Assembly: GCA_048885525.1 (NCBI GenBank) | Contig: JBHLLP010000047.1 | Coordinates: 1 to 27,774, forward strand | Reading direction: 5' to 3' | Source: Candidatus Hermodarchaeota archaeon | GTDB lineage: Archaea > Asgardarchaeota > Lokiarchaeia > Sigyniarchaeales > SOKP01 | Length of the DNA: 27,774 nt | In this document: in pieces, positions 5,952 to 13,906 of the stretch | How the letters are laid out: every line of letters starts with the position of its first letter | How positions within the stretch are numbered: position 1 is the stretch's first letter | Notes under the pieces: generated by a model | Told to the model about the DNA's origin: nothing | What the model saw: the letters and a program-made list of their open reading frames with translations, nothing else | The model's database searches: none | Position numbers and translations under genes: made by a program

Positions 5952-7109
5952 TTAATAATTTGAAGGCGTTTTGGTTTTAATTTTTGAGGGCGTTTTGGTT
6001 TTAATTGAAGGCGTTTTCTTCCTAATCTTTCTCAATTCTCTTTCAAATTCCCTTTTTTCATTTAGGAATCGTTGTTTATCTTTTGCTAATTTTTCTCTTT
6101 CACGTTTTATTGTATTTTTTTCACTTTCTAAGTTCGATTTTTGTTTTTCTAATTGTCTATATTCATTATTTAACCTGCTAAATTTTTCTTCTAAATTTGG
6201 AATTTTCCTATTTAAGGAAAAATACCTATTTTCAGCGCTAGGAATTTTTCTTTCCAATTCTTTTAGTTTTGCTTCTTGTTGTCGTCTTCTTTTTTCTAAA
6301 TCTTTAACATCTCTTTCTACTTTATCTCTATATTTTTTTAGATCTGCTTTTTTCTTATCAATTTCTCGAGTTTTAAGGTCAAGATCTTGCTTTTTATAAC
6401 GAGTCTTTTCTCTTTCTTCCTTTAATTTTTTCTTTTCCTCAGAAATTCTATTTTTTTCATCGTTAATTTCTCTCCGTAGATTATTAAGCTCCTTATTTAG
6501 ATTATCTCGATCTTTAGTTAAATTTTTAATTTCATTTCGTAATTCCATCAATTTAGACTCTAAATCATTGATAGTTCTTTCTAAAGCATTTTCTCTTCTT
6601 TCCATACCTGGAATTTTTGTTTTTATTTCCTTTATTCGTTTTTCTGTTCTTTCTTTTTCCCAATCTAAATTTTTTTTTTGATTAGCAATATCTTCTCTTA
6701 AATTATCTAATTTTTTTTGAAATCTTTCTAATTCAGCATTTTTTTGATCTAATTCTTCATTCTTACTCTTGATCTTTTCTCTAAATTGCCGTTCTTTAGT
6801 AAGTATTTCAATTTTTTGTTGATCTATTTGATTTTTCATTTTTTCTAGCTCGTTTTTTAAGTTATTACGCTGATCAAGAAGAAATTTAATTTTAAGTTCC
6901 TTTTCTTTCCTTTTCTTTTCAAGATCCTCAATGCTTTCTTTGTAATCTTCAACTTGATTAAAAACTTTTTCCCATTCGTTTTTTTCTTTAATTAGTTTGA
7001 TTCTTTCTTTTTTAATTCTTTTTAGTAATTTTTTATCTGGAATTGTTTCTAGTTCTTCATCTGGTGTTTTTTCTCGAATTTGATACTTAGGAATTGGTTC
7101 GTCGTTCAT
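5952..7109 (-). CDS. Long coiled-coil protein with KTPS-repeat tail
   Basis: About 330 aa of K/E/R/L-rich heptad-type sequence with almost no Gly or Pro and no ATPase motifs. Ends KKTPSIKTKTPSKIKTKTPSNY. Confidence 0.8.
   Translation of the reverse strand: MNDEPIPKYQIREKTPDEELETIPDKKLLKRIKKERIKLIKEKNEWEKVFNQVEDYKESIEDLEKKRKEKELKIKFLLDQRNNLKNELEKMKNQIDQQKIEILTKERQFREKIKSKNEELDQKNAELERFQKKLDNLREDIANQKKNLDWEKERTEKRIKEIKTKIPGMERRENALERTINDLESKLMELRNEIKNLTKDRDNLNKELNNLRREINDEKNRISEEKKKLKEEREKTRYKKQDLDLKTREIDKKKADLKKYRDKVERDVKDLEKRRRQQEAKLKELERKIPSAENRYFSLNRKIPNLEEKFSRLNNEYRQLEKQKSNLESEKNTIKREREKLAKDKQRFLNEKREFERELRKIRKKTPSIKTKTPSKIKTKTPSNY
5961..6017. repeat. Short imperfect tandem repeat (GA[A/G]GGCGTTTTGGTTTTAATT, ~2.5 copies) encoding the KTPS tail
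   Basis: Visible directly: tgaaggcgttttggttttaattttt gagggcgttttggttttaatt gaaggcgtttt. Confidence 0.85.
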
Positions 7110-7300: not shown

Positions 7301-7726
7301 ATGGGTTTTGATAATGAATTTGATGATGAATTTGATGAACAAGAATTTGATGAAGACTTAGAAGATTTAGATGAAGAAATTGAAGAAAAGCCGGAAGAGG
7401 ATAAAGAAGAACCTTTTGAAAAGATTCCTGAGGAAGAAGTTGAAGTAAAAACTCCTACTACTAAAGTTGTTTCTAGAGGTAAGAAACTTTCAGTATATTT
7501 TATGTCTACTATTGGTCCAGGTGAGAAAAAACAAAAACTGACTGTTAACGATGGAAATCTTGTAGGTGATATCAAAGAAACTGTAGCAAATTTATTTGGT
7601 TTAGTTCCTGCTGACTTTCATTTATCTTGTGGGGGTGTAACAATGGATGAAACTAATCCTTTAAGCGATTATAATATTTCTGACGGAGATGATATACTTT
7701 TAATTCCAGCTAGTATTGCTGGTTAA
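7301..7726 (+). CDS. Ubiquitin-like protein 1 with long acidic N-terminal extension, C-terminal AG
   Basis: The last 81 aa show a beta-grasp pattern (KLTV..D.K...LSDYNI.DGD.ILLIP) including the ubiquitin hexapeptide LSDYNI. Ends IPASIAG-stop. The N-tail is about 60 aa and D/E-rich. Confidence 0.88.
   Translation: MGFDNEFDDEFDEQEFDEDLEDLDEEIEEKPEEDKEEPFEKIPEEEVEVKTPTTKVVSRGKKLSVYFMSTIGPGEKKQKLTVNDGNLVGDIKETVANLFGLVPADFHLSCGGVTMDETNPLSDYNISDGDDILLIPASIAG
7307..7357 (+). repeat. Tandem TTTGAT-based repeats encoding FDNE-FDDE-FDEQE-FDED
   Basis: tttgataatgaa tttgatgatgaa tttgatgaacaagaa tttgatgaagac. Confidence 0.7.
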
Positions 7727-7775
7727 ATCTTTCTTAAAGAAATAATGGGAGTAAATATTAATTTTCGATTTTTTT

Positions 7776-8570
7776 TTAATTTTTATCTTTTCTTGAGGGA
7801 ATTAGAGCAATTTCATCGTCATCATCTATGCTGTAGTCTTTTATTTGTGAGGTTTCATCTAATAATATCCCTCCGGATGATAAGAGAAAAACTTGATCTT
7901 CATAATCAAATAGTAGTGCAATTTTCTCTTTAACAGCTCTTACTGATTCATCTATATCTATTATAATAATTTTTGTTTTCTCACCAGGTTCCAATAATGA
8001 TCGTATATATACGCGAATTTGATCTTCAATTTTTATAGAGCTCCTTGGTGACATATAAGGTATCACATCATTAATATTATTCCTATTTTCTAACATATTT
8101 TCGATTAGCTCTTTTCTTTCTTTTGGATCATAGTATATCATTTCTCTGATAAACAATATTTTATCCATTTTTGATAGATCCAGTAGGTTAATTTTATTTA
8201 ATTCTTCTTTACTTAAAATTGAAAAAATATATTTATCTATGATTGGCATATCCTTATAGGATTTATTTGATTCAACATATTCATCTAAAGAAGGCATGGC
8301 ATCAATATAATCTTCAACAATATTGAAAGATTTCTTTTGTATTAACTTCTGTTTAGTAGTATATTTTTTTTCTTTTAACATCTTGACTGAACTAGTTTTA
8401 GATTGTATTACGGTATAAATTGTACTAGTGGATAATACAGCAACACTACCTATAGTTAGAGTAAATAATAAGAGATTATTTTCTATATGAAATAGGAAAA
8501 ATAAAATATAGAGCAAAATACAAACAGTATAAAGAACGACAACACTTAATATTCTATAATTTTTTCTCAT
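7776..8570 (-). CDS. Membrane-anchored protein (2 N-terminal TM helices) with C-terminal ubiquitin-like domain
   Basis: Hydrophobic segments at about aa 7-29 and 33-55. The last ~80 aa share PGEK, LSSGG, DE, DY.I.D.D.I.LIP with the free Ubls but end SRKDKN (no Gly). Confidence 0.82.
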   Translation of the reverse strand: MRKNYRILSVVVLYTVCILLYILFFLFHIENNLLLFTLTIGSVAVLSTSTIYTVIQSKTSSVKMLKEKKYTTKQKLIQKKSFNIVEDYIDAMPSLDEYVESNKSYKDMPIIDKYIFSILSKEELNKINLLDLSKMDKILFIREMIYYDPKERKELIENMLENRNNINDVIPYMSPRSSIKIEDQIRVYIRSLLEPGEKTKIIIIDIDESVRAVKEKIALLFDYEDQVFLLSSGGILLDETSQIKDYSIDDDDEIALIPSRKDKN

Positions 8571-8654
8571 GATTTTTTATTAGATTATTTTCTGTAGTTA
8601 AAATATTTAATTTAACATTTAAATGGGATTGGAATAAAAGTGGAGTTTTTAATC

Positions 8655-9326
8655 TCATTCACCTTGAATCAATTTTCTTATATTAGTATATTTTTTTTGA
8701 TCTAATTTGTATATATGTCTATTTTTTTCTTTTTCAATTTTTATTAACTTTAGATCTGCTAAAATATCTATATATTTTTTTATAGTAGTATGATTCTTTT
8801 TCAGTCCATTTGCTATCTCTGTGATTTTTAATGCTTTATTTTCTATTTTCATAAACTCTATAATATTTTGAACAATTTTTTTTTTTAAATAATAGTGAAA
8901 CGGGTCAAGTGTTGGATCTGAATCGAATTTGAAGAAATATCTATGGTTATTGATTTGTTTTGATCTGACAAATTGAAATTTTTCTAAGCATGATAGATGC
9001 CATAAAGCTTGATTACTGCCAATTTTTAGAACCTTCATTATTTTATTAATATTTGATGGATTCTTTTTAATAAAATTGAATATCTCATTTCTTTTCGGAT
9101 GTTCTATTATATTATTTTTCATTAATTTTGTTCCAGGGATAATAACGCGTCTTTTAATGAAATCCTTCAGAATTAACTCTATTCTATTCTCATTTATATT
9201 AGGATTGTATCGCACTCTATTGCTTATATAGGAGATAATTTCTTTAATTGAAAAGAAGGTCTTCTTTGTTAAATACTCTCTTACTAATTTAAGAACAACA
9301 GATTCTGCATCATCAAAAGAACTCAT
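8655..9326 (-). CDS. Multi-winged-helix (ArsR/MarR-like) DNA-binding protein
   Basis: Repeated wHTH patterns: RNEIFNFIKKNP...ALWHLSCLEKFQFV and KITEIANGLKKNHTTIKKYIDILADLKLI. A probable third wHTH lies at the N-terminus. Confidence 0.8.
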   Translation of the reverse strand: MSSFDDAESVVLKLVREYLTKKTFFSIKEIISYISNRVRYNPNINENRIELILKDFIKRRVIIPGTKLMKNNIIEHPKRNEIFNFIKKNPSNINKIMKVLKIGSNQALWHLSCLEKFQFVRSKQINNHRYFFKFDSDPTLDPFHYYLKKKIVQNIIEFMKIENKALKITEIANGLKKNHTTIKKYIDILADLKLIKIEKEKNRHIYKLDQKKYTNIRKLIQGE

Positions 9327-9590
9327 AAAACTTTACTTCAAATAGATTGATTAATTTGGTTTTTATAACAATTTACTTTCTTTAAAACAACTTTCACAAT
9401 TTATATATATTGATAGGGGTTCATAAAATTTATAATATAATTTCTTAAGAATTCTAATTTTGATTTTTTTATTTTTAATAATGATTTGAAAACTTCAATA
9501 TTATTCCAATGGGTTTTATAATATCTTTTTAACGCCATTTTAATAAGTTTAATAAAATTAAAAATTAAAAAAAAAAAGGAAGTGATTTGA

Positions 9591-9923
9591 ATGAGTTTTG
9601 ATGAATTTGATGAAGATTTAGGAGGAAATGAACCAGTAAAATCTAAAACTCCAGCAGGTAAAACTCCGACTGGAGGAAAGAAATTAACTTTATATTTCAT
9701 GTCTACAATTGGTCCTGGTGAAAAGAAAGAGAAGTTAACTGTGAATGACAGCAATAGAGTAAGAGATATTAAACAAACATTAGGAAATTTATATGGACTT
9801 GACCCTAATGATTTCCACCTTTCTAGTGGAGGGGTCACTATGGATGAAAATAGTGATTTAAGAGACTATGATATAAATGATGGTGACGATATTCTATTAA
9901 TTCCAGCGAGTACAGCTGGTTAG
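9591..9923 (+). CDS. Ubiquitin-like protein 2 with acidic N-terminal extension, C-terminal AG
   Basis: 61 of 81 core residues are identical to the 7301 Ubl (manual count). Ends IPASTAG-stop and lies directly upstream of E1. Confidence 0.9.
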   Translation: MSFDEFDEDLGGNEPVKSKTPAGKTPTGGKKLTLYFMSTIGPGEKKEKLTVNDSNRVRDIKQTLGNLYGLDPNDFHLSSGGVTMDENSDLRDYDINDGDDILLIPASTAG

Positions 9924-10001: not shown

Positions 10002-11261
10002 ATGGTGATAATATTGGATAAGGATTCAGATTTTTTCGCAAAAGAATTATCAGTGGAAGAAAGAGCCCTGTATGACCGCCAATTTCGTCTGGAAGGGTGG
10101 TCTCAGAAATTGGTAAAGAATTCTAGAGTTCTAGTAGTTGGTGTGGGAGGTTTAGGTTGTGAAATTGCCAAAAACTTGGCTATGCTTGGTGTTGGTCAGC
10201 TTGATCTTATCGATTTAGACATTATTGAGCATTCTAATTTAAATCGTCAAGTTCTTTTTACAGGTGCAAAGCTAGGAGAACCTAAGGCAATTGTTGCTGC
10301 TCGTAAGCTAAAAGAAATTAATCCTAATATTATTGTTAAGGGATACCACACCTCTCTAGAACGATTGAACCCAGCACTTTACCAAGCTGCGGATGTTGTT
10401 ATCGGAGGCCTTGATTCTATGAACGCACGTCTGAATTTAAATGCACAATGTATAAGATTTAAAAAGCCATTAGTAGATGGAGGTGTATCTGGTTATCACG
10501 GTCATGTATATACAGTTTTTCCTTATAAAAATGCGTGTTATGAATGCAATCCATTACCTATAGGTGAGTCTGATGAAATGGCTGCTTGTACAGTAGTAGG
10601 AATCCCTCGAAAAAGGATTCATTGTGTTTTTAAAGGAGATATGGTCTTTAGAGAAAAATTTGATAGAGATCCAAATCCAAAAGATGTAAATGATATAGAA
10701 TTCATTCAAAAGGTTGCAAATGAATTAGTAATTGAGCATAATTTCTTACCCGAATATACTCAGGACGATATTGTAAAAATCATTGATAGACATGATCCTG
10801 GTATAATAACTATAAATGCCGTTATTTCTGCTTTACAATCACATGAAGCAACCAAAATCCTTCATTGGAAAAAAGGACATAAAGGATTAGGTGAACCTAT
10901 TAAAAGTTATGTGATTTATAATGCAATTACAATGAAGTTTTATCATATTGAAAAAAAAAGAAATCCAGAATGTCCTCAGTGTAGTAAAAACGTTCGACGA
11001 GTATCTATAAAATTGAGATCTGAATCGCCTTGCATAAATATAATAAAGATATTAGAGAAGAATGGATATAAATTAGATAGAGATTCTGAACCAATTTTGA
11101 CTTTACAAGACTTTAATGATATTATAATGGTCGATTTACAGAAGAATCCAATTGAAAATGGTTTAAGAAATTACGAATTTGTAACAGTTGCAGGGTTTAA
11201 AGGGGGAGAAATTTTTGTAACCTTAAAATTAAAACAAAATTTGAATCAAAAAAGATTTTAA
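10002..11261 (+). CDS. Ubiquitin-activating enzyme E1 (ThiF/MoeB family, UBA2/UBA3-like)
   Basis: LYDRQ, GVGGLG, DLDIIEHSNLNRQ, Zn motifs CYEC and CPQC, catalytic loop AACTVVGIPRKRIHC (Cys196), and a C-terminal ~80 aa probable ubiquitin-fold domain. Confidence 0.92.
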   Translation: MVIILDKDSDFFAKELSVEERALYDRQFRLEGWSQKLVKNSRVLVVGVGGLGCEIAKNLAMLGVGQLDLIDLDIIEHSNLNRQVLFTGAKLGEPKAIVAARKLKEINPNIIVKGYHTSLERLNPALYQAADVVIGGLDSMNARLNLNAQCIRFKKPLVDGGVSGYHGHVYTVFPYKNACYECNPLPIGESDEMAACTVVGIPRKRIHCVFKGDMVFREKFDRDPNPKDVNDIEFIQKVANELVIEHNFLPEYTQDDIVKIIDRHDPGIITINAVISALQSHEATKILHWKKGHKGLGEPIKSYVIYNAITMKFYHIEKKRNPECPQCSKNVRRVSIKLRSESPCINIIKILEKNGYKLDRDSEPILTLQDFNDIIMVDLQKNPIENGLRNYEFVTVAGFKGGEIFVTLKLKQNLNQKRF

Positions 11262-11340
11262 ATTAATATAATAAAAAACAATAAAAATTTAAACAAAAAA
11301 TTTCAATATAAAATTAGATATAATAAAAAGGGTTGAGAAA

Positions 11341-11868
11341 ATGAGTATAAGAAGTAGTCGTATTTCCCGCGATGTTGCGGGATTAAAGAAAATGCAGAAA
11401 GAGGGTAATATTGTTCAACTACAACCATTTAATCCTAAAAGGAAGAGTATTAATCATTTAGCAATTTCATTTAGAGGCCCCAAAGGTACTGCTTATGCAG
11501 GAGGTCTTTTTAGATTAGAAATGAAATTCCCTGCTCAATATCCTAGACAACCCCCTTTTGTTAGATTACATACACCAATTTGGCATCCAAATTTTTGGCC
11601 AAAACCATCTGAATATAAAGGCCAAAGAAATATATGTTTAGCATTAGTAGATCCTTCGTTAGTTGGTAAAAAAGGGGGCTGGAGTCCCTCAAAAACAGCA
11701 GTTACAGTTGTCCAGGCAATCATTGCAATGTTAAATACACATGGTAAATATGTAAATCCTACCGATGTTTTTAATAAAAAAGCAGCGGTTGAAATGATGA
11801 AAAATCCTAAATTTTTCGAGAAAAAAGTAAAAAATCTTGTTAAGAAGTATGCTAATAAAAAATGGTGA
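11341..11868 (+). CDS. Ubiquitin-conjugating enzyme E2 (UBC fold)
   Basis: GPKGTAYAGGLF, FPAQYPRQPP, IWHPN...NICL (Cys99), WSP and N..AA motifs. Confidence 0.95.
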   Translation: MSIRSSRISRDVAGLKKMQKEGNIVQLQPFNPKRKSINHLAISFRGPKGTAYAGGLFRLEMKFPAQYPRQPPFVRLHTPIWHPNFWPKPSEYKGQRNICLALVDPSLVGKKGGWSPSKTAVTVVQAIIAMLNTHGKYVNPTDVFNKKAAVEMMKNPKFFEKKVKNLVKKYANKKW

Positions 11869-12692
11869 TATTTTCAATGGAAGATAAGGAATCAGCTAAT
11901 AATTCAATCAAAGATACAATAAAGAGGAAGATAAAAGAAAAAATAAAACAAGAATTGTTAGATGAAATCTGTGAAGAGCTTGCGTTAGAAGAAGATGAAT
12001 TAACAGAGGAAATCACTTCAATACTTACAAAAAAGTCCTCTAGTAAGTCAATAATAAAACTTACAAAGATACCTTCAGAAGAAATTGTAGAAAAAAAAGA
12101 GGTTGAAATTCAAAAAGAAGAAAAGATTCAAAAGGAAATTTATATTTCGGTAAAAGCAATCCTTAAAATAGCGAGTCATGCACTTAAATATGCCAATTCT
12201 CAGATTCAAAGAGAAAAATGGGTTGAGGTTATAGGGCTTCTTGCCGGAAAAATAGAAAAAAGTAATGGTATCTTACATATTGAAGATGCTTATCCGATGG
12301 GACATGGTACAGCTGTTTATGCTGAAATTAAAGACTATAAAAACTATGCTAGAGCTTTCCAAGATATTAAAAAACAAAAATTATTTATATGTGGGTGGTA
12401 TCATTCTCACCCAAGCTACGGATGTTTCTTAAGTTCAGAAGATATGGGCACACAAGCGAGATATCAAAAACTTTGGGACAAATCTGTGGCTCTTGTTATC
12501 GATCCTTACCAAATCGATGGTAAATCCACAGGATTTGAAATATATAAAGCGGATCTTAGAAGTAAAACATGGTATCCTTTAGTATATGGAATTAAAGGAT
12601 CACTAGATGTTAAGATGCTTCCAGAAGTTTTAAAATTCATGAATCCTATAATTGAAGGGAGAGCTGTTTATCTCGAATATGATGAAGATTGA
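11862..12692 (+). CDS. JAMM/MPN+ metallo-isopeptidase (Rpn11/CSN5-like)
   Basis: ISVKAILKIASHA, EVIGLL, GWYHSHPSYGCFLSSED (E...HxH-x7-S-x2-D) and ALVIDP. Start overlaps the E2 stop; an alternative ATG occurs five codons downstream. Confidence 0.93.
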   Translation: MVIFSMEDKESANNSIKDTIKRKIKEKIKQELLDEICEELALEEDELTEEITSILTKKSSSKSIIKLTKIPSEEIVEKKEVEIQKEEKIQKEIYISVKAILKIASHALKYANSQIQREKWVEVIGLLAGKIEKSNGILHIEDAYPMGHGTAVYAEIKDYKNYARAFQDIKKQKLFICGWYHSHPSYGCFLSSEDMGTQARYQKLWDKSVALVIDPYQIDGKSTGFEIYKADLRSKTWYPLVYGIKGSLDVKMLPEVLKFMNPIIEGRAVYLEYDED

Positions 12693-12721
12693 AACAACGG
12701 AAATTTGGTGATTATTAAACT

Positions 12722-13906
12722 ATGCCTAAATATAAAGCTGTCGCATTAACAATGACAATATTTTCATTGATAGGCATAATACACAGTATAATTCTAGATT
12801 CTTTTAATGTATTTGTGAGCTGGCTATTAATAGGAATATGGTTAATTTTTTCTCTCAAAGTTTTAAAAAATATTAAACAATATCGAGAATATCGGAGTCC
12901 TCATAATACAGCTTTCTTTATTATTAGTCCTGTTTTTGTGGGTATATTTTATTCAATATGGGGAAATTTTACTGGTTTGTTAGGAGAAAATCTTCTATTA
13001 AGTTCAGATGTATACTTAAGTTGGTGGAGCATTTTATTTGGATTTCCTTATGTTTTATATGGTTCGATATCTTTATTTCGTTGTTTTAAAAAATATAATG
13101 TAATCTATTTTGGAACGAAATCTGTAAATGCTAGGAAATTTGGGTATATTTTAGGATTTTCAATATTTTCTTTCATAATTGTTTATTGGATAAGTTTTTA
13201 TTCACTTATTGACTTCTATGAATCTTTATTGATACCTATTCATTTCTTAATTGATTTAAATCTTTTATTTTTGCTAATTGGTAGTTTATTAATAACAATT
13301 GTTTTTGGTTTTTTCGGAGCTCGAACCCAATTACCTCAGTTGACTAGAGATTATATAACAAGACGCACAACTAGATTGAATGATTTAATGTCGCCTAATC
13401 GACGTACAGTAAGAAATCGTAGCACAATACGATCATCTCCAACACCTTCAACTAGAACAGTATCTCGTACTTCAAGATCAGTTTCAAATTCCTCAAGATC
13501 AACACCTACTGCGCATTTACAATCAAGAAGTTCTAGAGTTAAAACAACTACTCGAACTACAAGCAGTAGTAGAACAGGAAAACCAATTAGAAGTAGTCAT
13601 AAAACCATGAAACAAATAAATTTTAAGTTATATAGACCAAAAGCAGGAAATTTATCATTAGAAGATTTTAAATGCATATTTTGCTTTAAGCTGCCCGAAA
13701 TTCCTAAGGATAATGCTAGAGGAATAATCTTATGCCCAAGTTGTAGATATCCCGCTCATGCTGATGAATTCAAAGACTGGCTTAAAAGTTCTCATCTTTG
13801 TTCAAGATGCAATGCCACTATTCCGTCAAATTATAGGAAAAATCCTAAAATTATCAGTGTAAAAAATTATATAATCATTTATAAGGGCTTATTAAGGAGT
13901 GGATAA
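12722..13906 (+). CDS. Polytopic membrane protein with C-terminal RING-variant Zn finger (putative E3 ligase)
   Basis: About six hydrophobic segments in aa 5-200, an S/T/R-rich linker, then CIFC-x16-CPSC-x4-H-x2-E-x3-W-x6-CSRC. Last gene of the E1-E2-JAMM run. Confidence 0.8.
   Translation: MPKYKAVALTMTIFSLIGIIHSIILDSFNVFVSWLLIGIWLIFSLKVLKNIKQYREYRSPHNTAFFIISPVFVGIFYSIWGNFTGLLGENLLLSSDVYLSWWSILFGFPYVLYGSISLFRCFKKYNVIYFGTKSVNARKFGYILGFSIFSFIIVYWISFYSLIDFYESLLIPIHFLIDLNLLFLLIGSLLITIVFGFFGARTQLPQLTRDYITRRTTRLNDLMSPNRRTVRNRSTIRSSPTPSTRTVSRTSRSVSNSSRSTPTAHLQSRSSRVKTTTRTTSSSRTGKPIRSSHKTMKQINFKLYRPKAGNLSLEDFKCIFCFKLPEIPKDNARGIILCPSCRYPAHADEFKDWLKSSHLCSRCNATIPSNYRKNPKIISVKNYIIIYKGLLRSG

Follow-up and report, generated by a model that had tools for sequence, protein, structure and literature searches.

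A membrane-anchored ubiquitin-like protein without a terminal glycine as a candidate tether for a winged-helix regulator in a Lokiarchaeial lineage

Introduction

The protein described here would combine two known kinds, membrane proteins that sequester a regulator and proteins with a built-in ubiquitin-like (UBL) domain. In the membrane anti-sigma/extracytoplasmic function (ECF) sigma pairs, the two genes are neighbours, the surface with which the regulator binds nucleic acid or polymerase is covered by a helical domain in the cytoplasm, and paralogous pairs carry varied ectodomains. Among the eukaryotic membrane UBL proteins, HERP has an N-terminal UBL, and the MUBs are prenylated at a C-terminal CAAX box. 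In the SdpI/SdpR pair of Bacillus subtilis, a membrane protein sequesters an autorepressor of the ArsR type whose gene lies just upstream of its own (PMC2910880). We analysed a 27,774-nt stretch of DNA from Candidatus Hermodarchaeota archaeon (contig JBHLLP010000047.1, the whole stretch being called the window), in which the gene of a transmembrane (TM) protein with a C-terminal ubiquitin-like (Ubl) domain, TM-Ubl, and the gene of a tandem winged-helix (wHTH) protein lie beside a ubiquitin-type conjugation locus. We propose, with about even confidence, that TM-Ubl is a membrane tether of the SdpI/SdpR or anti-sigma type for the regulator of a small Ubl regulon, with its decoy Ubl domain as the probable input.

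As in SdpI/SdpR, the wHTH gene directly precedes that of the membrane protein, with both on one strand; the membrane protein is itself among the controlled genes, and its cytoplasmic face is where the regulator is proposed to be kept. SdpI is polytopic and uses membrane-proximal loops for binding, whereas TM-Ubl is predicted to be a two-helix hairpin with a soluble helical module, and the two share no kinship of sequence or fold. The input of SdpI is an extracellular toxin, that of TM-Ubl presumably its cytoplasmic Ubl domain, and the regulator, unlike SdpR, has three winged-helix domains. The anti-sigma pairs share with this system the neighbouring genes, a cytoplasmic helical masking domain (predicted here), and expanded pairs with varied sensory ectodomains. 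The regulator here is a wHTH protein and not a sigma factor, a class that archaea are not known to have, and the module has no informative match among solved folds. Side-by-side encoding and joint inheritance, as seen in membrane sequestration pairs as a functional class, were both found for wHTH and TM-Ubl.

Like HERP/Usa1, TMUB1/2 and the MUBs, TM-Ubl would place a non-conjugatable ubiquitin fold at the cytoplasmic membrane face beside a membrane RING-type ligase system. Unlike HERP and the MUBs, it has an N-terminal hairpin, a C-terminal Ubl domain and a putative regulator-docking module, and its likeness to HERP/Usa1, TMUB and MUB goes no further than an analogy in architecture. The locus also resembles the operon-like Ubl-E1-E2-JAMM-RING loci of Caldiarchaeum subterraneum and Asgard archaea, (PMC5654768, PMC6043591, PMC9192718), and the Caldiarchaeum ubiquitin was the best structural match of the Ubl domain. 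In the papers searched on Asgard archaea and ubiquitin, including the text of PMC9192718, PMC12962969 and PMC10936438, no membrane-tethered Ubl without the terminal Gly, no wHTH partner and no such module was described.

Results

Domain organization and membrane topology of TM-Ubl

The features of the TM-Ubl gene are as follows.

7776..8570, minus strand: TM-Ubl gene, 264 aa plus stop
8400..8552, minus strand: membrane hairpin, aa 7-57 (TM1 7-27, a 5-aa loop, TM2 33-57), from hydropathy, positive-inside counts and the AlphaFold2 (AF2) model
8319..8399, minus strand: Lys-rich disordered linker, aa 58-84, poorly conserved, from the predicted local distance difference test (pLDDT), charge count and conservation (0.59)
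8085..8318, minus strand: helical module, aa 85-162, predicted wHTH docking domain, from profile matches and a model with pLDDT 86.8
8022..8084, minus strand: second linker, aa 163-183, partly within the predicted wHTH interface
7797..8021, minus strand: beta-grasp Ubl domain, aa 184-258, paralogue of the free Ubls
7776..7796, minus strand: basic tail SRKDKN plus stop, with no Gly at the terminal Ala-Gly position of the modifiers

The gene was defined by its open reading frame (ORF) and translation, by its homologues, and by M1, which was nearly invariant in the family alignment. A word-indexed search returned 402 homologues, nearly all of 259-269 aa and with 58-81% identity to TM-Ubl, whose source names were Promethearchaeota/Lokiarchaeia. 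The window is AT-rich (G+C ~28%), and an ORF on the plus strand that overlaps TM-Ubl (7745-7933) was without support. A relic or pseudogene was ruled out, the Ubl domain, the module and TM2 being the best-conserved parts of the protein.

The AF2 model, built from 76 homologues, consisted of two hairpin helices (3-26 and 32-66), a linker (61-84, pLDDT <50), a helical domain (83-161, pLDDT 82-88), a second linker (~162-183) and the beta-grasp domain (184-258). The helices of the hairpin matched the hydrophobic stretches at about aa 7-27 and 33-57 on the Kyte-Doolittle scale, and the two methods thereby agreed with the initial annotation, which had described a membrane-tethered protein with two N-terminal TM helices. 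The mean number of Lys plus Arg was 3.4 in the N-tail of 6.6 residues, 0.5 in the loop of 5-7 residues, and 8.6 in the ~31 residues after TM2. Because positive charges flank the hairpin, the positive-inside rule predicts that both ends of TM-Ubl, and hence the Ubl domain, are cytoplasmic, the side on which that annotation had expected the domain.

TM2 was the best-conserved segment of the protein (conservation 0.86). It is rich in Ser, Thr and Gly (window 8400-8474, aa 33-57), and the paralogues have a comparable TM helix ahead of the module, which suggests helix-helix packing or signal transmission within the membrane.

The helical module recurs at the C-termini of receptor-like proteins

The middle region had been noted as helical, and this part of the description stood, since it folds as a domain. 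It is no mere spacer, because it is a conserved independent module that recurs in receptor-like tails. Folded alone, the module gave a confident six-helix domain (pLDDT 86.8). In an exhaustive HMMER search, residues ~73-165 of TM-Ubl matched the extreme C-termini of many proteins of differing lengths, from 413 to 1912 aa. These module-bearing proteins have a beta-helix/NosD, Ig-like, laminin-G or beta-propeller ectodomain, followed by a TM helix, a basic stretch and the module, and often carry a CxxH...CxxC...CxxC...CWxC zinc finger between the basic stretch and the module. An identity of this zinc finger as RING was ruled out by Pfam, which gave only weak B-box and double-zinc-ribbon matches. 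An ORF of 162 aa with only the TM and module parts was also found, which may be a fragment from ORF calling. Because TM plus module recur in the receptor-like proteins, TM-Ubl is best described, from these profile matches, as a TM-plus-module protein to which a Ubl domain has been added.

Searches for the identity of the module gave little. Pfam returned nothing significant for 36 module sequences; a weak match to Cue1_U7BR in four of the 36 (best E 0.0099) was treated as chance. Against the Protein Data Bank (PDB), the profile search gave nothing below E 0.07, and Foldseek gave no match. A wide fold search with VIA-align returned only generic three-helix bundles (Z <=6.1) covering module residues 40-91, of which the best was a designed helical tetramer (Z 6.1), with the cytosolic domain of an anti-sigma factor at rank 21 (Z 4.5). 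In the ESM Atlas only the family itself was found by structure, and nothing by features.

The module gene is paired with a winged-helix gene

The predicted partner of the module and the cassettes found in relatives are listed here.

8655..9326, minus strand: tandem winged-helix (wHTH) protein, 223 aa, 84 nt upstream of TM-Ubl on the same strand
L053:4446-7008, L054:5147-7828, L055:5464-9215 and L056:4854-12711, loci of relatives: cassettes of wHTH and then a receptor-like membrane protein

The wHTH protein matched Pfam HTH_5 and HrcA_DNA-bdg above the cut-offs, and together with its paralogues it passed the cut-offs of the DNA-binding winged-helix families HTH_5, HrcA_DNA-bdg, HTH_24 and HVO_0163_N. 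A search of its sequence against the PDB gave nothing below E 0.1. The family has 3-22 copies per genome.

For the comparison of loci, 40 loci were cut out and annotated with the proteins of the window, and wHTH and TM-Ubl were adjacent and co-directional in 39 of the 40, across four genera. In 135 genomes of the family, orthologous wHTH and TM-Ubl were both present in ~90 and both absent in ~38, with ~7 mismatches, mostly at contig ends (counts from our reading of per-genome tables). The pairing extends to the paralogues: in three of five informative contexts (L053, L054, L055) the gene next upstream of a paralogous module gene, and co-directional with it, was a wHTH paralogue. In the fourth (L056) a wHTH paralogue heads the same gene array as the module gene, and in the fifth none was found within 2 kb. 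The receptor-like protein of the cassettes has a signal or TM segment, an ectodomain of the beta-propeller or beta-helix type, a TM helix, in some cases a CxxH/CxxC zinc finger, and the module at its C-terminus. Such cassettes of wHTH and receptor-like module protein may represent a family-specific transmembrane signalling system.

Predicted interaction of the module with the wHTH protein

Complex prediction with TM-Ubl 75-264 and wHTH gave a median interface score (ipSAE) of 0.66 (0.66, 0.81 and 0.62 in the individual runs), the best of three controls giving 0.00. In a benchmark that holds only roughly here, our own alignments having been used, 58 of 80 solved complexes attained such a score, as did 2 of 110 mismatched pairs. 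Contact agreement among the runs was at least 47%, and the pLDDT of the partners was at least 81. The predicted interface was formed between residues 85-185 of TM-Ubl (the module and the second linker, the part listed with the module being 85-175) and residues 15-129 of wHTH, which comprise its first and second winged-helix domains (WH1 and WH2). Among the closest predicted pairs were, on the TM-Ubl side, F116, F140 (invariant), L155 (nearly invariant) and M159, and on the wHTH side F25, G65, W109, H110 and L111, which are invariant in the family. The third winged helix (~148-210) was free in the model. Binding of the module to wHTH is thus supported by the structure prediction.

The binding of a protein by WH1 and WH2 in this model would also suit a different role, in which wHTH is a tandem-winged-helix scaffold of the type of ESCRT-II, a complex for endosomal sorting, and TM-Ubl with wHTH forms a membrane sorting complex displaying a permanent "ubiquitylated cargo" signal. 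The subunits of ESCRT-II are built as tandem winged helices, and ubiquitin is a ligand of Asgard ESCRT-I/II proteins (PMC9192718, PMC10936438). The Pfam matches, however, were to DNA-binding families of the ArsR, HrcA, HTH_24 and TrmB types and not to EAP30 or Vps25; the 3-22 copies per genome, often beside receptor-like genes, follow the pattern of signalling regulators; and a specific motif marks the promoters, as described next. We see little chance for such a scaffold.

A shared promoter motif before TM-Ubl and the Ubl genes

Alignment of the intergenic regions of orthologous loci revealed one conserved block before TM-Ubl and one before Ubl2, the first gene of the conjugation array, and the two blocks had the same sequence. 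The motif copies and the genes of the array are given below, with genome contigs as C and loci as L.

8628..8649, minus strand: 22-nt motif AAAACTCCACTTTTATTCCAAT, 58 nt before the TM-Ubl ATG, followed by CCC and a TATA-like ATTTAAAT
9489..9510, plus strand: second copy, 81 nt before the Ubl2 ATG, followed by GGG and a TATA-like TTTTATAAT
C46:22043-22064, plus strand: third exact copy of AAAACTYCANNNTNATTCCAAT (L061), 70 nt before an ORF of 71 aa that has a paralogue nearby
C48:17071-17092, minus strand: copy with one mismatch (L062), before a membrane ORF of 97 aa
C35:5643-5664, minus strand: copy with two mismatches (L063), 76 nt before a third free Ubl gene (110 aa, ends STAG)
9591..9923, plus strand: free Ubl2, 110 aa, ends STAG, first gene of the Ubl2-E1-E2-JAMM-TM-RING array
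10002..13906, plus strand: context genes E1 (ThiF), E2 (UQ_con), JAMM, and a polytopic membrane protein with a Cys-rich C-terminus (TM-RING)

The 3.58 Mb genome contains only three exact copies of AAAACTYCANNNTNATTCCAAT, two of which are those before TM-Ubl and Ubl2, and the copies in the genome lie 58-102 nt from the ATG, a distance of 64-97 nt being noted for those of L061, L062 and L063. With up to two mismatches, the motif was found before TM-Ubl in 29 of the 40 loci (in 26 of these at a spacing of 58-60 nt) and before Ubl2 in 28 of the 40; in two loci of genus g5 it was found before E2. It was missing before the single Ubl gene of four loci that have no wHTH and no TM-Ubl. Because the motif and a TATA-like box precede both TM-Ubl and Ubl genes, TM-Ubl appears to have its own promoter and to belong to a small regulon with the Ubl genes, of which the genes behind the L061, L062 and L063 copies are candidate members. 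From its position, the wHTH protein would be the factor that binds the motif. Because the motif abuts the would-be position of the B recognition element (BRE), repression and activation are both possible.

The Ubl domain is a paralogue of the free modifiers without their terminal Gly

A second free Ubl gene flanks TM-Ubl on its other side.

7301..7726, plus strand: free Ubl1, 141 aa, ends SIAG, convergent with TM-Ubl

The 76 C-terminal residues of TM-Ubl had 37% identity to Ubl2 (E 3e-17) and 39% identity to Ubl1 (E 4e-16) in BLASTP. In the three-way alignment PGEK, LS(S/C)GG, DE, DY and I.LIP were invariant, and in a wider comparison PGEK, LSsGG, DY and LIP were common to TM-Ubl domains and free Ubls. 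The initial annotation had regarded the domain as a copy of the free Ubl domain, and these identities and motifs bear it out. The Pfam ubiquitin family PF00240 matched aa 195-256 with E 8.4e-5 and 22.7 bits, just below the cut-off of 25.4, and had a precomputed match on many TM-Ubl orthologues. The AF2 model of the domain has strands at 184-191, 198-205, 228-232 and 252-258 and a helix at 210-221. Its top match in the PDB by Foldseek was the Caldiarchaeum ubiquitin 6fno_D (E 6.6e-7), with a root mean square deviation (rmsd) of 1.5 Å over 77 columns, and comparison with ubiquitin, ISG15 and Hub1 gave target-normalised TM-scores of ~0.8-0.9 (~0.9 for ubiquitin and ISG15) and rmsd of 1.1-1.5 Å; the model is a beta-grasp.

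Among 123 family members the tail of TM-Ubl reads IPSRK[EDK][KR]N (IPSRKDKN in the window) and contains no conserved Gly, while the free Ubls of the same loci (n=75) end in IPAS[TIV]AG, some with up to ~5 extra residues. When the last strand was aligned by hand to the sequence of ubiquitin, the free Ubls ended at the position of Gly76, where TM-Ubl has Lys. Because Lys replaces the terminal Gly in this alignment, the Ubl domain as it stands should not be activatable by E1; the C-terminal Gly of conjugatable Ubl modifiers is absent, as the description of the protein as non-conjugatable had it. No Cys that could form a MUB-type CAAX site was found near the C-terminus of TM-Ubl, whose anchor is the N-terminal TM hairpin.

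A tree of 118 Ubl domains placed those of TM-Ubl, 40 in number, in one clade (support 1.0) on a long stem, with an evolutionary rate about twice that of the free Ubls. Despite this faster rate, the Ubl domain (conservation 0.81) remains, with TM2 and the module, among the best-conserved parts of the protein. The tree and the alignments indicate a recent paralogue of the lineage's own Ala-Gly modifier and, because it is such a paralogue, an origin independent of the eukaryotic membrane UBL proteins.

Among the relatives, the protein P0133 is a head-to-tail tri-Ubl in which each repeat ends in STAG, similar to a polyubiquitin precursor. The set of P0133, P0141 and P0164 also includes Ubl domains behind other N-terminal domains, one of them ending in STAGLMY. 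The tri-Ubl and the STAGLMY end imply that Ubls of the relatives may be processed after Ala-Gly. The natural tri-Ubl, the modifier-like Ubl domain, and the disordered, Lys-rich linker would all fit a role of TM-Ubl as a membrane acceptor or chain primer, with free Ubl joined to lysines of the linker or the Ubl domain and an anchored chain as the product. The lysines of the linker, however, are poorly conserved and fit the positive-inside rule, no particular acceptor sites are indicated, and the pairing of module and wHTH would be left unexplained, so that we consider this role very improbable.

Distribution of TM-Ubl and linkage to the conjugation locus

In 400 genomes of the phylum, full-length TM-Ubl was found only in four genera of one family, in nearly all genomes of g1 and g12 and in part of g11 and g5. 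Of the 40 loci, 39 were informative for linkage. The order FtsZ - small ORF - MJ0043-like - nucleotidyltransferase (NTase) - coiled coil - Ubl1> <TM-Ubl <wHTH Ubl2> E1> E2> JAMM> TM-RING> (arrowheads giving direction) was kept in 34 of the 39, and 34 of the 39 also had TM-Ubl within 5 kb of E1-E2-JAMM-TM-RING, so the gene is linked to the Ubl locus in other genomes too. The genomes of the five split loci retain an orthologous E2 gene at another site. A shorter locus, coiled coil< Ubl> E1> E2> JAMM> TM-RING>, with neither TM-Ubl nor wHTH, is found in genera g6, g7 and g13 and in one distant family. Because these sister genera have the E1-E2-JAMM-TM-RING locus without the block <TM-Ubl <wHTH Ubl2>, the block is a later insertion into a working conjugation locus and not a core part of it.

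These data bear on the role that the initial annotation had proposed, that of an adaptor or decoy modelled on HERP/Usa1, TMUB1 and the plant MUBs and similar to those of endoplasmic-reticulum-associated degradation (ERAD), in which the polytopic TM-RING ligase would receive E2, JAMM, E1 or a Cdc48/proteasome-type ATPase through the Ubl domain. The close linkage in 34 of 39 loci and the retention of E2 in the split-locus genomes would suit such an adaptor, as would a Ubl domain that is predicted to be cytoplasmic, is strongly conserved and keeps the motifs of the modifiers, and a most conserved, Ser/Thr/Gly-rich TM2 that could pack on another membrane helix. The TM-RING conjugation locus nevertheless exists without TM-Ubl in g6, g7, g13 and the distant family, against TM-Ubl as a core scaffold of the ligase, and an adaptor leaves the conserved module, its pairing with wHTH paralogues and the shared promoter motif unexplained. 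We regard the adaptor role as unlikely; it concerns the Ubl domain alone and is compatible with a tether.

Several rearrangements of the locus were observed. In a closed genome (G189, locus L013; L002:6288-6560) the locus is broken just after Ubl2, leaving a ThiF fragment of 91 aa, and E2 lies ~100 kb off. Insertions of ~3-4 kb occur between wHTH and Ubl2 (L019:11177-15053, G227) and between Ubl2 and E1 (L065:405-3528, G235). The contigs of G235 and G154 end at Ubl2 and are uninformative on natural deletions within a genus. S/K-K-T-P motifs recur in the tail of the coiled-coil protein (window 5952-7109, minus strand), in the N-tails of the free Ubls (9591-9680, plus strand) and in the 71-aa protein (L061:1635-1850).

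Discussion

The domain structure, the homologies, the loss of the Gly, the synteny, the recurrent cassette and the motif were computed directly, and the proposal of a membrane tether joins them as follows. The module would dock onto the first two winged-helix domains of wHTH, including the recognition-type helix of the second, and thereby hold wHTH at the membrane. The Ubl domain would take the place of the ectodomain that acts as the input in the paralogous receptor-like module proteins; since the loop of TM-Ubl on the outside has only five residues, the Ubl domain is the likely input. Proteins that recognise the free Ubls (E1, E2, JAMM or a receptor) might also bind the decoy; alternatively, the Ubl domain might serve as a built-in signal for degradation or extraction. 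Holding or release of wHTH would depend on the state of the Ubl system, and wHTH would then act on the 22-nt motif before TM-Ubl, the Ubl2-E1-E2-JAMM-RING operon and the third Ubl gene.

Several observations weigh against the tether. The closed genome G188 keeps TM-Ubl and its motif with no orthologous wHTH gene beside them. The link between wHTH and the motif is drawn only from position and co-occurrence among related genomes, and binding of the module to wHTH comes from a single set of structure-prediction runs with our own alignments. The genome of the window has no other module proteins, so that the cassette argument draws on relatives. In the complex model the Ubl domain contributes only residue 206 to the interface. 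The interface also covers the recognition-type helix of WH2, so WH2 may serve for protein binding alone, which would make wHTH a scaffold and not a regulator.

A bolder version of the tether, which we rate as doubtful, sees in the Gly-less Ubl a mimic through which the cell would gauge how much of the Ubl machinery is free, and in the cassettes of wHTH and TM-module protein with a beta-propeller or beta-helix ectodomain an unrecognised class of transmembrane signalling pairs of the Lokiarchaeia. When free modifier is low, idle E1, E2, JAMM or receptors would bind the decoy, the module would release (or capture) wHTH, and this release or capture would reset transcription of the Ubl regulon.

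The origins of eukaryotic ubiquitin signalling are one reason for the study of Asgard archaea. Archaeal Ubl domains built into proteins for non-covalent use, or a control circuit of a Ubl system, were not met in the Asgard papers whose text was searched. Our results suggest that, in a Lokiarchaeial lineage, a copy of its own modifier became a fixed domain bound to the membrane, and the complex model suggests that this domain may have been wired to a transcription-factor-like protein via an undescribed docking module. The pair of module and regulator is reused behind large surface receptors, which makes it a candidate transmembrane signalling system, and TM-Ubl probably links the control of the genes for Ubl tagging to the state of the tagging system.

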